A stretch of DNA of 64,000 bases from positions 111,464 through 175,463 of the forward strand of contig CAWEFP010000022.1 in assembly GCA_963808295.1 (NCBI GenBank), read 5' to 3'. Positions 37,589 to 40,500 of the stretch are shown piece after piece; position 1 is the stretch's first letter; the number at the start of each line of letters is the position of its first letter. The notes under the pieces were generated by a model that was not told the DNA's origin, did no database searches, and saw only the letters and a list, made by a program, of their open reading frames with translations. The translations under genes were made by a program, and so were the position numbers. The DNA comes from an uncultured Actinomycetes bacterium (GTDB lineage Bacteria; Actinomycetota; Actinomycetes; Streptosporangiales; Streptosporangiaceae).

Positions 37589-40500
37589 CTAGCCGGCACC
37601 GCGCAGGCGCTCCGCGTGCTCCTGCAGCGACCGTACGCCGACCTCGCCGCGGATGATGGCCTCGATGCCCTGCACCGCGGCCCCCAGGCCCGGCACGGTC
37701 GTCACGCACGGCACCCCCCGCCGGACCGCGGCCGAGCGGATCTCGTACCCGTCGAGCCGGGGACCGGTGTGCCCGGGGCTGCCGAACGGCGTGTTGACGA
37801 TGAGGTCCATCTCGCCGTCCAGGATCCGGGTGACGACCGTCGGCTCACCGTCGGGCCCGGGGCCGTCGCCGTGCTTACGGACGATCTTGGCACGGACGCC
37901 GTTGCGGCGCAGCACCTCGGCGGTCCCCCGGGTCGCCCAGATCTCGAAGCCCAGGTCGGCGAGGCGCTTGACCGGGAACACCATGGACCGCTTGTCCCGG
38001 TTGGCGACCGACACGAACACGCGCCCCTTGACCGGCAGCGACCCGTACACGGCCGCCTGCGATTTCGCGTACGCGGTGCCGAACATCTCGTCGATGCCCA
38101 TGACCTCGCCGGTCGAGCGCATCTCCGGGCCGAGCACGGTGTCCACGCCCTCGCCCTGGGTGTTGCGGAACCGGCCGAACGGGAGCACGGCCTCCTTCAC
38201 CGCCACCGGGGCGTCCAGCGGGAGCGTGCCGCCGTCCCCGTCGGGCGGCAGCAGCCCCTCGGCGCGCAGGTCCGCGATGCTGGCGCCGAGCATGACCCGG
38301 GCCGCCGCCTTGGCCAGCGGGACCGCGGTGGCCTTGGAGACGAACGGGACCGTGCGCGAGGCGCGCGGGTTGGCCTCCAGCACGTACAGCACGCCGGCGG
38401 CCAGCGCGTACTGGACGTTGAGCAGGCCGCGCACGCCCACCCCGGCGGCGATCCGGGTGGTGGCGTCGCGGATGGCCTCGATGTCCGCGTGGCCCAGCGT
38501 GATCGGCGGCAGCGCGCACGCCGAGTCGCCGGAGTGGATCCCGGCCTCCTCGATGTGCTCCATCACGCCGCCGAGGTACAGGTCCTCGCCGTCGTACAGC
38601 GCGTCCACGTCGATCTCGATCGCGTCGTCGAGGAAGCGGTCGATGAGCACGGGATGCTCGGGGCTGGCCTGCGTCGCGCGCCGCACATACGCGGCCAGGG
38701 TGTCGTCGTCGTAGACGATCTCCATGCCGCGGCCGCCGAGCACGTAGGAGGGCCGCACCAGGACCGGGTAGCCGATCTCCCCGGCCACCTGCTGGGCCTG
38801 CTCCGCCGAGGTGGCCATGCCGTACCGCGGCGCCGGCAGGCCCGCCGCGGCGAGCACCCCGGCGAACGCGCCGCGGTCCTCGGCCAGGTGGATGGCCTCC
38901 GGGCTGGTCCCGACGATGGGCACGCCGGCCGCCTCCAGCGCGCGCGCCAGGCCCAGCGGCGTCTGCCCGCCGAGCTGGACGATCACGCCGGCGAGCGGCC
39001 CGCTGGCCTGCTCGGCGTGCACCACCTCGAGCACGTCCTCACAGCGTCAGCGGCTCGAAGTACAGTCGCCCTGACGTGTCGTAGTCGGTGGAGACGGTCT
39101 CCGGGTTGCAGTTGACCATGACCGTCTCATATCCGGCCTCGGCCAGCGCGAACGACGCGTGCACGCAGGCGTAGTCGAACTCGATGCCCTGGCCGATCCG
39201 GTTCGGCCCGCTGCCCAGGATGATCACCTTGGGCCGGTCCCCGGGCGGGACCTCCGTCTCGTCGTCATAGGTGGAGTACAGGTAGGGGGTCCGCGCGGCG
39301 AATTCGGCCGCGCAGGTGTCCACCGCGTGGAACACCGGCCGGACGCCGAGCCCCCAGCGGATCTCCCGGACGCTGGCTTCGCTCATCCCGCGGAGCTGGC
39401 CGATCTGCGCGTCGGAGAAACCGGCCCCCTTGGCCAGCCGCAGCGTCCCGGCGTCGAGCGGCTGTATCGGCCCGGGGGGAGGACGCCGTCCGGGGGACGA
39501 CTCCCCTGGACCCGTGCCAGCCCGGGGGGCCGACCCCCCGGACCGCCCGCTCGCTGTGCTGGCCCGGGGGGACGACCCCCCGGAACCCCCCGCTGCGCTC
39601 CGCGCCCCGCTGCGGTACTCGCCGACACACCGGCCGCTCGCCGGGCCTGACGGCCCGGCTCGCTGGCCGGTTACAGACCGCCTCGCCGTAGGTCCCGCTG
39701 CGGTTCTCGCCGCTGATCACCGGCCGCTCACCCGGGCCTGACGGCCCGGGATCGCTGGGCCGGTGAGCTCGCCCTCGTCCCGGCCGCCGCGGATTCGTTC
39801 GGCTATTTCCTCGATATGCGCGATCTGGTCGACGAACCAGGGGTCGATCGCGCTCGCCGCGACCACGTCGGCCACGCTGGCCCCCGCGCGCAGCGCCTGG
39901 TGCACGGTGCCGAGGCGGCCGTCGTGCGGGATGGCGCAGCGGCGCAGCAGTTCCGCCGCGTCGCCGGGCGGTTCATCCCAGCCGAACGGCGCCCCGCGGG
40001 ACTCCATCGACCGCAAGGCCTTCTGCAGCGCCTCGGGAAAGGAGCGCCCGATGGCCATGGCCTCGCCCACCGACTTCATGTGCGTGGTGAGCTCGGTGTC
40101 GGCGCTGGGGAACTTCTCGAACGCGAACCGCGGCGTCTTGACCACCACGTAGTCGAGCGCGGGCTCGAAGCAGGCGGGGGTCTGGCCGGTGATGTCGTTC
40201 GGGATCTCGTCGAGGGAGTAGCCGATGGCGAGCTTCGCCGCGATCTTGGCGATCGGGAAGCCGGTCGCCTTGGAGGCCAGCGCCGAGGAGCGGGACACCC
40301 GGGGGTTCATCTCGATGACGACCATGCGGCCGGTCCGCGGGTGCACGGCGAACTGGATGTTGCAGCCGCCGGTGTCCACCCCGACCGCCCGGACGATCGC
40401 GATCGCGGTGTCGCGCATGCGCTGGTACTCGCGGTCGGTGAGGGTCATCGCGGGGGCCACGGTCACCGAGTCGCCGGTGTGCACGCCCATCGGGTCGATG

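Follow-up and report, generated by a model that had tools for sequence, protein, structure and literature searches.

The DNA considered here is a window of 64,000 nucleotides (the whole stretch that was analyzed) from an uncultured Actinomycetes bacterium of the Streptosporangiaceae (assembly GCA_963808295.1, contig CAWEFP010000022.1, positions 111,464 to 175,463). Its pyr operon contains carB, the gene for the large subunit of carbamoyl-phosphate synthase, on the minus strand at 37589..41242, with carA upstream. Inside carB lies an inserted element of 323 nt with 79% G+C (39459..39781, minus strand), delimited by DNA alignments with 12 relatives. The empty alleles of three of these (L210, L204, and L002) have only 8 nt where the window has 323. 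A first-pass annotation made from the letters alone had described a hairpin- and repeat-rich insertion, broken by a single in-frame TGA, within the essential gene carB. This description holds for the insertion itself, its frame, its flanks, and its hairpins, but not for the period of the repeat, and the rest of the gene is not intact either.

As assembled, carB consists of three frame segments and one in-frame stop. With intact orthologues as query, tblastn places the coding sequence in frame -1 at 41242-40724, in frame -3 at 40724-39042, and again in frame -1 at 39040-37592, followed by a TAG terminator at 37589-37591. The frame-corrected translation has the full domain architecture of CarB (CPSase_L_D1 and CPSase_L_D2 twice each, CPSase_L_D3, and MGS, according to Pfam), and it is 91-98% identical to its orthologues at the amino acid (aa) level. 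What the assembled gene lacks is one uninterrupted reading frame, since two frameshifts and the TGA break it, and this is probably an artefact. As had been read by eye, the open reading frames (ORFs) 39717..41174 and 39039..39386 share a minus-strand frame, the TGA at 39717-39719 is the only in-frame stop between them, and protein comparison and Pfam identify the flanks as canonical CarB. The two frameshifts had been overlooked. In the first (40730..40732, at about 40731, minus strand), 1 nt is absent in GCGGC-GGAC as compared with L001 and L002. Owing to this deletion, the first ~150 codons of ORF 39717..41174 are not in the CarB frame, and the true N-terminus of CarB sits in a different frame from that ORF. 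In the second (39040..39042, minus strand), a surplus T at 39041 in CTG-T-GAGGAC makes the TGA that terminates ORF 39039..39386. When the insert is excluded, the dN/dS ratio between the window carB and the intact carB of L206 is 0.067, and the gene is under strong purifying selection.

The in-frame TGA (39717..39719, minus strand) is found within GGTGATCAGC, which contains GATC, and its T is the last stem base of the first long hairpin of the insert, called A' here. The context at the foot of this hairpin is GGCCGGTGATCAGC. Among the ~7,000 conserved codons compared, it is the sole internal in-frame nonsense codon; a second "*" in the GH2b alignment stands at the alignment start, upstream of the ORF, and is hence not internal. 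Its position is variable in the family: L001 has GGTGAT in another frame, and L212 has GGTGGTGTC, with sense codons at the homologous place. By our own estimate from base composition, about 1.2 stops are expected by chance in 107 codons at 79% G+C. Since one is observed, that the insert is open except for one TGA carries little information. One alternative sense frame of the insert is entirely free of stops; relatives whose ORF stays open through the motif use this frame and read (Y/D)GEA there.

Read from 5' to 3' on the minus strand, the insert is a series of modules. It begins with a 5' leader, GGGACGAGGGCGAGCTC (39765..39781), which corresponds to the family motif ...ACGGCGAGGCGCTCG in the alignment of type-A copies. 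The long hairpin A' comes next (39719..39764; ACCGGCC-cagcgat-CCCGGGCC-gtca-GGCCCGGG-tgagc-GGCCGGT), with an inner perfect stem at 39731-39750 in minimum-energy folds. It is followed by spacer 1 (39672..39718), in which alignments with relatives show a conserved ...ACCTACGGCGAGGCG... motif that is translated as (Y/D)GEA in relatives whose ORF is open through it, and as TARR in the window's CarB frame. Then comes the long hairpin A (39629..39671; ACCGGCC-agcgag-CCGGGCC-gtca-GGCCCGG-cgagc-GGCCGGT), whose stem shows compensatory changes across 17 copies, and spacer 2 (39592..39628), with a mini-hairpin GCGCGGAGCGC that is conserved as GGGGCGCGAAGCGCAGC in type-A copies. The 3' part is an array of cores. 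Core unit 1, GGGGGGTTCCGGGGGGTCGTCCCCCCGGGCCAGCAC (39556..39591), matches the family consensus exactly (nhmmer E = 1.6e-11); core unit 2 (39514..39549) is a diverged tandem copy with a TCGG loop, at a spacing of 42 nt; and core unit 3 is degenerate and runs into a tail, GGACGGCGTCCTCCCCCCGGGCCGATACAG (together 39462..39513), which is common to L001, L205, and L208. The two-module A'-A architecture also occurs in L116, L198, L102, and L212. The direct repeat, which had been put at about 50 nt, has a period of ~90 nt, and the tandem units are 42 nt apart.

Four perfect 8-bp stems (39522-39541, 39564-39583, 39640-39659, and 39731-39750) thus fall within 230 nt, which bears out the hairpin-rich nature of the insert. 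Across the entire window, such hairpins are not in excess (36 observed vs. 18-48 in shuffles), so a global enrichment was rejected; the four hairpins are a local feature, and only their clustering within the insert is unusual. Folding, one of the checks proposed by the first-pass annotation, shows the insert to be much more stable than its shuffles (z = -5.6 as RNA and -5.3 as DNA). Compensatory changes affect 8 of the 23 consensus pairs in 17 type-A family copies, and since these pairs are kept through changes on both sides, the hairpins themselves are conserved.

At the protein level, the site is inside the CPSase_L_D3 oligomerization domain, and the Pfam match ahead of the insert covers positions 3-55 of the 80 in the profile. 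It aligns to a loop near residues 478-483 of Escherichia coli CarB, which is 4 residues longer there. In nearly all Actinomycetota, the DPWF...PVY segment spans 65-70 aa, and the ~178 aa counted here, as compared to 65-85 aa in ~70 other genomes, make the linker as unusually long as had been supposed. In the AlphaFold model of P0003 (the L001 allele, with 54 additional aa), residues 257-308 have a pLDDT of 26-32 and no secondary structure, while the flanking helices 236-253 and 314-322 reach 82-92; the model is only moderate overall, with a mean pLDDT of 67.7. The insert is therefore predicted to be a disordered loop between two confident helices. Pfam finds no intein/Hint or homing-endonuclease domain in it, and its peptide is of low complexity and predicted to be disordered. 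For want of such a domain, an intein or other removed intervening sequence was rejected.

The same site was then compared in 12 genus-level relatives, ten more loci having been obtained through BldD, which is identical in many of them. The closest sequences are 86-92% identical to the window in nucleotides and none of the BldD-derived relatives exceeds 92%, so that the TGA cannot be checked against a sequence of the same species. The alleles of the carB site range from empty to ~336 nt. It is empty in L002, L210, and L204, has 11 to 15 additional aa in L207 and L208, and contains a short, different hairpin in L209. The addition is 54 aa in L001, L205, and L206, about 75 aa with two cores in L211, 110 aa in L212, and 112 aa with five tandem 45-nt cores in L203. 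Yet the flanking carB sequences diverge by only 0.4-2.7% within the main clade: L203, with its 112 additional aa, differs from the short allele of L209 by 0.4%, and L206 differs from L208 by 0.6%. Both sub-clades have filled and empty alleles. The carB site is hypervariable on a short timescale, and this distribution of alleles requires repeated gain or loss, or else allele exchange by recombination. A similarly long but non-repetitive linker in close relatives would, according to the first-pass annotation, have meant an old conserved feature; the inserts of the relatives are instead repetitive and variable. In L203, L205, L206, L207, L210, L211, and L212, gene calling gives CarB as one undivided ORF of 1112-1223 aa, which means that the element is read through in relatives. 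A first CarB search of a large protein database returned only proteins of <1000 aa, full-length CarB being apparently absent; its top matches are biased toward truncated or frameshifted genes, and it was thus not used to estimate how often carB is broken.

The insert is a full-length, modular "type A" member of a dispersed family of G+C-rich palindromic repeats. A scan of metagenome contigs with the exact 23-nt core pattern GGKTYCNGGGGGGTCRTCCCCCC finds it in at least 120 contigs with unrelated flanks. Most of the matches listed have JGI-style contig names, so the family extends well beyond the assemblies of the window's relatives. The consensus of 121 copies is cgcGGGGGGTtCcGGGGGGTCGTCCCCCCGGGccagcac, with a conserved 3' tag, GGGCCAGCAC, and the modular 5' parts fall into at least four types. 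Full-length similarity links the insert to unlinked copies in L116, L198, L102, L187, and L128, and the unlinked intergenic copies keep the A'-A-core module order, including the two-hairpin duplication. In L198, the element takes up all of the space from the stop codon of a lysS-like gene to the convergent gene that comes next. Further hairpin units are located after rpoZ in L006, within carA in L005, and, in L037, both within pyrB and where pyrK meets pyrD. The earlier view of a mobile or expanding element in a solvent-exposed linker is thus supported by a dispersed family copy, a polymorphic site, and a loop location. Full-text searches of the literature yielded no description of the core sequence or of actinobacterial in-frame palindromic elements, and the family is apparently previously undescribed.

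Residence within genes was assessed with a coding-signal test, which uses GC3 minus GC2 on both flanks and requires the same frame and no stop through the element. Among the matches listed, 14 of the 106 classifiable metagenome copies lie within continuous ORFs (at least 13% intragenic), and the remaining ones are mostly intergenic. Nine in-frame host ORFs were scanned with Pfam, and all have genuine domains. In four of these hosts the matched domain spans the insert: a CCA/poly(A) polymerase (HD domain), PurH (AICARFT/IMPCHase), a UDP-sugar dehydrogenase, and an amine oxidase. Further hosts are TypA/BipA, Ada/AlkA, xanthine dehydrogenase, GH3, and a methyltransferase. The element has the orientation of its host gene in seven cases and the opposite one in seven, and the encoded peptides, one of which is PGGRPPGTP, differ with frame and strand. 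At a single site in TypA homologues (NCBI "Streptosporangiaceae bacterium"), 26 sequences have KGS or KGT and seven have element peptides of 16-27 aa. The PurH of L098 has a second low-complexity insert, ...LPGGTPPYPPGAAGGGAGGTPNRW..., besides the core-derived one, so that one gene may hold two element insertions. A protein search with the element's 46-aa translated peptide gave one candidate and no match, such a short, low-complexity query being unsuited to this search.

A second family locus is present in the window itself, at 53289..53364 on the plus strand, where a GH2 glycosidase gene (50770..53286) ends in TGA and two tandem 36-nt cores follow at once. At the orthologous position, L207 and L209 have a degenerate version, and L210 and L211 have no element. 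Even when empty, this site contains GTCAGCGCTGAG, which is like the 3' tag of the element, and the empty alleles at carB and at 53289-53364 both carry a GYCAGCRC-like motif resembling this tag. This is a weak lead toward target-specific insertion without duplication. Two other places in the pyr operon are candidates for old relics. The intact pyrB (44237-45241) has a Gly/Ser/Pro/Arg-rich in-frame insert of 26 aa (44714..44794, minus strand), which gives no significant match to the core model; at the same site, pyrB of L037 has a recognizable two-hairpin family element, and the window insert may be what is left of an old copy after decay. The lineage-specific insert of carA (41655..41790, minus strand) contains three ~21-nt CCGGGGAAGGCCAC(G)CCCCG mini-hairpins and a frameshift; CarA is ~40-60 aa longer than usual in the entire clade, and carA of L005 has an in-frame family element at this same site.

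Some neighboring features are of separate interest. In one sub-clade (L001, L203, L205, L206, L207, L209, and L212), pyrF directly follows carB and pyrK/pyrD are missing at the locus. This pair, which encodes a class 1B dihydroorotate dehydrogenase (35500-37450 in the window), is retained in the window, L002, L204, L208, L210, and L211, and an 85-aa remnant of it persists in L212. Elsewhere in the window, beside a DUF397-like ORF, a perfect hairpin with a 16-bp stem (20990-21028; GGTGGATCCCCCCGGG attgccc CCCGGGGGGATCCACC) is followed by one with a 10-bp stem (21035-21060). The former may be a bidirectional terminator; it was rejected as a family member, as no copy of it is found in 212 loci. 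Finally, L001 has a fragment of an IS605-type OrfB (TnpB) at 1604-2485, between the GH2 and HEPN genes, with no adjacent core; it is absent from the window.

The lesions of carB are not isolated. Between 34500 and 62000, at least eight frame breaks relative to intact orthologues occur in ~30 kb. They are found in carA (~41740), carB (~40731 and 39041), pyrK (~37160, and perhaps a second at ~36450), pyrD (~35685), a luciferase-like monooxygenase gene (~53762), and CbiA (~58870), and the CobD, ThiE, and CoaBC alignments likewise end early. In this respect, the window resembles a long-read consensus of low coverage. The same conserved genes have 1-nt indels in L001 and in L002 as well, private to each of the two, and the sibling contigs split into clean ones, with all pyr genes intact, and heavily fragmented ones. 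The closest relatives bear Flye-style "contig_NNNN" names and belong to ENA assemblies ERZ250395xx, and the closest species in the genome collection are "MFD" metagenome-assembled genomes (MAGs). The Microflora Danica long-read study used Nanopore-only data, Flye assembly, and one round of Medaka polishing (PMC12313526). The quality split among siblings, the private indels, and the dN/dS of 0.067 favor consensus error over independent decay of essential genes. The TGA and the two carB frameshifts are therefore, with good probability, consensus errors of a long-read-only assembly. The first-pass annotation had treated the TGA as a biological puzzle, which is not supported, given the number of frame breaks in the window and the intact CarB ORFs of relatives (1165-1223 aa) that traverse the element. 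Among the four options that it offered, sequencing error is the likeliest.

Taken as a whole, the locus is probably best explained by a palindromic element that resides in a CarB loop and is translated with it, the lesions being consensus errors. Several observations weigh against one part or another of this explanation. Locally, the TGA shares its frame with the sense codons that L212 has at the homologous place, so that its removal needs a substitution or a pair of compensating indels; all the other lesions are indels, and this one alone is a nonsense codon; and the surplus T at 39041 is outside any homopolymer. The window's own origin in the Nanopore project could not be shown. In 314 kb sampled from the clade, the core occurs only at carB and one other locus, and the copy number in this genus may be modest. 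No transposase, terminal inverted repeats, or target-site duplication were found at the loci examined, which include two sites with empty alleles; the alignment to relatives thus defined the boundaries of the insert (39459-39781) without revealing a duplication. The RAYT/IS200-type arrangement, with inverted cores flanking an ORF, is also missing from these loci. The word "mobile" therefore rests on distribution rather than on mechanism, and the mechanism of mobilization is inferred. Finally, cores free of stops in all six frames are no more frequent than in composition-matched shuffles (80/121 vs. 63/121). The idea that stop-freeness sets the core apart was thus rejected; stops are scarce because of a G+C content of ~80%, not by design.

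The lesions could be real, making carB a recent pseudogene in a cell that uses pyrimidine and arginine salvage or another carbamoyl-phosphate synthase. The frame of the TGA and the non-homopolymeric T speak for this, as do three independent lesions in one gene and the breaks in carA, pyrK, and pyrD of the same operon. Yet pyrR, pyrB, and pyrC of that operon are intact, and unrelated genes are hit too (the luciferase-like gene, CbiA, and possibly CobD). The ratio of 0.067 against an intact orthologue does not fit with decay either. Moreover, the private indels of the low-quality siblings differ from one contig to the next but hit the same conserved genes, and it is unlikely that essential genes decayed in parallel in several lineages. 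We consider a pseudogene unlikely. The TGA might also be both real and functional, through recoding or read-through (selenocysteine or suppression), or by CarB being made as two polypeptides split at the oligomerization domain. Split carB genes occur in some prokaryotes, and a small GCGG-cgagaa-CCGC hairpin begins 4 nt downstream of the TGA. However, there is no in-frame ATG, GTG, or TTG after the TGA until 39386, and a restart there would cost CarB a conserved helix. In the relatives, sense codons occupy this place or the segment is missing, and none has a stop; the two frameshifts would still break CarB; and ordinary stops end other genes here, for example the TAG of carB and the TGA of GH2. 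Selenocysteine, read-through, and a split CarB were rejected on this context, and a functional TGA is most improbable. In any case, the TGA should not be read biologically without read-level confirmation.

The nature of the insert is less debatable than that of the stop. A lineage-specific, low-complexity loop could have grown in place by replication slippage, with no mobile element involved. This would account for the tandem 42-45-nt units and the length polymorphism of the site, it would agree with the lack of a detected transposase or target-site duplication, and high G+C alone explains Gly/Pro/Arg-rich peptides with few stops. However, more than 200 nt recur in the same module order at unlinked loci of other organisms, and the exact core is present in at least 120 contigs with unrelated flanks, in other genes included. 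In addition, the stems stay paired via compensatory changes, and the second locus of the window is absent from the orthologous site in relatives. Growth in place alone is thus very unlikely. That the whole insertion is an assembly artefact, chimeric or from a mis-joined repeat, would suit a source that appears to be an error-prone long-read assembly. It is hardly credible, though, since related inserts are found at exactly this site in nine independent assemblies, several of them within intact ORFs, and since the family occurs in many other metagenome assemblies, most of which have JGI-style contig names.

Among known systems, the closest analogues in behavior are the Rickettsia palindromic elements (RPEs; Ogata et al., 2000, 2002), dispersed palindromes which a later article describes as repeatedly fused in frame with housekeeping ORFs (PMC10969869). 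Like the family found in carB, RPEs are dispersed palindromic repeats of ~100-150 nt or more, located in frame in unrelated housekeeping genes as well as between genes, and translated as an extra peptide at positions compatible with the fold. The present family shares their dispersal in multiple copies with unrelated flanks (at least 120 contigs, two loci in the window, and copies in L005, L006, and L037), and their palindromic structure (8-bp stems, z-scores, and compensatory changes in 8/23 pairs). It also shares recurrent in-frame insertion with the frame kept open (14/106 copies among the matches listed, and CarB ORFs of 1165-1223 aa) and, for carB, the one host tested, location in a surface loop. 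The differences are nonetheless clear. The host of RPEs is an A+T-rich obligate intracellular alphaproteobacterium, as opposed to a free-living soil actinomycete with ~72% G+C. Unlike RPEs, this family is built of modules, a shared 3' core being joined to one or another of several 5' parts; tandem arrays of the core make the site hypervariable in length; and the peptide is a low-complexity Gly/Pro/Ser/Arg sequence predicted to be disordered. A relationship in sequence is not to be expected, and homology to RPE-1 to RPE-10 is implausible because of the gap in G+C (79% vs. ~30%). An Rfam search gave no relevant match.

In form, the family is closer to the REP/BIME repeats of Proteobacteria, which are extragenic by definition and are mobilized by RAYT (Y1/HUH) transposases. 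Both are short G+C-rich imperfect palindromes in mosaic clusters, mostly just after stop codons, with stems kept by compensatory changes and a conserved tag beside the hairpin (here GGGCCAGCAC). But at least 13% of the copies here are intragenic and in frame, which the extragenic definition of REP/BIME does not allow; the tandem units are direct rather than alternating; and the phylum is different. The consensus cgcGGGGGGTtCcGGGGGGTCGTCCCCCCGGGccagcac has no GTAG/CGTC-type 5' tag, its conserved tag being 3', and no RAYT gene is seen near any copy in the loci examined, which are short. The comparison with bacterial MITEs is similar. Intragenic in-frame copies are known for ERIC, Correia, and cyanobacterial elements (PMC10969869), and these too are small non-autonomous repeats able to fuse in frame with host ORFs. 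Unlike MITEs, the family has shown no terminal inverted repeats, target-site duplication, or parent insertion sequence, although this is a weak distinction, as only two pairs of filled and empty sites were compared. A last resemblance is misleading. On the plus strand, Rfam matches the guanidine-II riboswitch (mini-ykkC, RF01068) at 39489-39538 and 39564-39594, with 23.6 and 22.4 bits vs. a gathering score of 32. The mini-ykkC motif consists of two ACGR hairpins, and the antisense cores are likewise tandem G-C stems with ACGA or CCGA loops; the matches arise because these antisense cores are G6-ACGA-C6 hairpins. Below the gathering score, antisense within carB, and with no link to guanidine genes, this candidate was rejected as a look-alike, but the family could cause false mini-ykkC annotations.

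A model can be proposed from these comparisons. The insert would be a non-autonomous, G+C-rich, modular palindromic repeat, with the form of a REP/BIME or MITE and the behavior of an RPE. It would have entered a surface loop of the CarB oligomerization domain in the ancestor of a genus-level clade, or more than once. Its layout combines two long hairpins with imperfect pairing (A' and A), spacers that are conserved, and, at the 3' end, an array of cores of 36-45 nt, each a G6-TCGT-C6 hairpin followed by GGGCCAGCAC. At ~80% G+C, any frame gives a Gly/Pro/Ser/Arg/Ala-rich peptide, predicted to form a disordered loop. With stops so rare and the peptide disordered, in-frame copies in permissive loops would survive selection and be translated with CarB, and the translated loop would carry peptides such as ...GVPGGSSPPAST... 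joined to the CarB flanks. The core array would then expand, contract, and partly delete, probably by slippage or recombination between tandem cores. Such turnover would yield alleles of 0 to ~336 nt between near-identical flanks. In the cell, there is probably one CarB of ~1,215 aa.

The practical consequences are twofold. Strains could be typed by the carB site, used as a VNTR (variable-number tandem repeat) marker, and in long-read-only MAGs, consensus errors and false pseudogene calls should concentrate in such homopolymer-rich hairpin arrays. The biological ones are wider. Among strains whose flanks differ by <3%, an essential enzyme has alleles ranging from empty to more than 100 extra residues, and this series is a natural experiment on how far a core enzyme tolerates disordered insertion. 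It is also possible, though we put this forward as a tentative proposal, that a new modular palindromic mobile family is actively colonizing essential genes (CarB, CarA, PyrB, PurH, TypA, the CCA enzyme, and others) of uncultured Streptosporangiaceae-like soil Actinomycetota and making hypervariable disordered loops there, maybe by hairpin-guided single-strand insertion beside a GYCAGCRC-like target without duplication. To our knowledge, the in-frame colonization of housekeeping genes by palindromes is known chiefly from Rickettsia, and it is usually tied to reductive evolution and weak selection. If the proposal is true, an RPE-like phenomenon would exist in free-living bacteria with large genomes, where selection should be efficient, and its presence in high-G+C soil actinomycetes would mean that in-frame colonization is no peculiarity of degenerating genomes.

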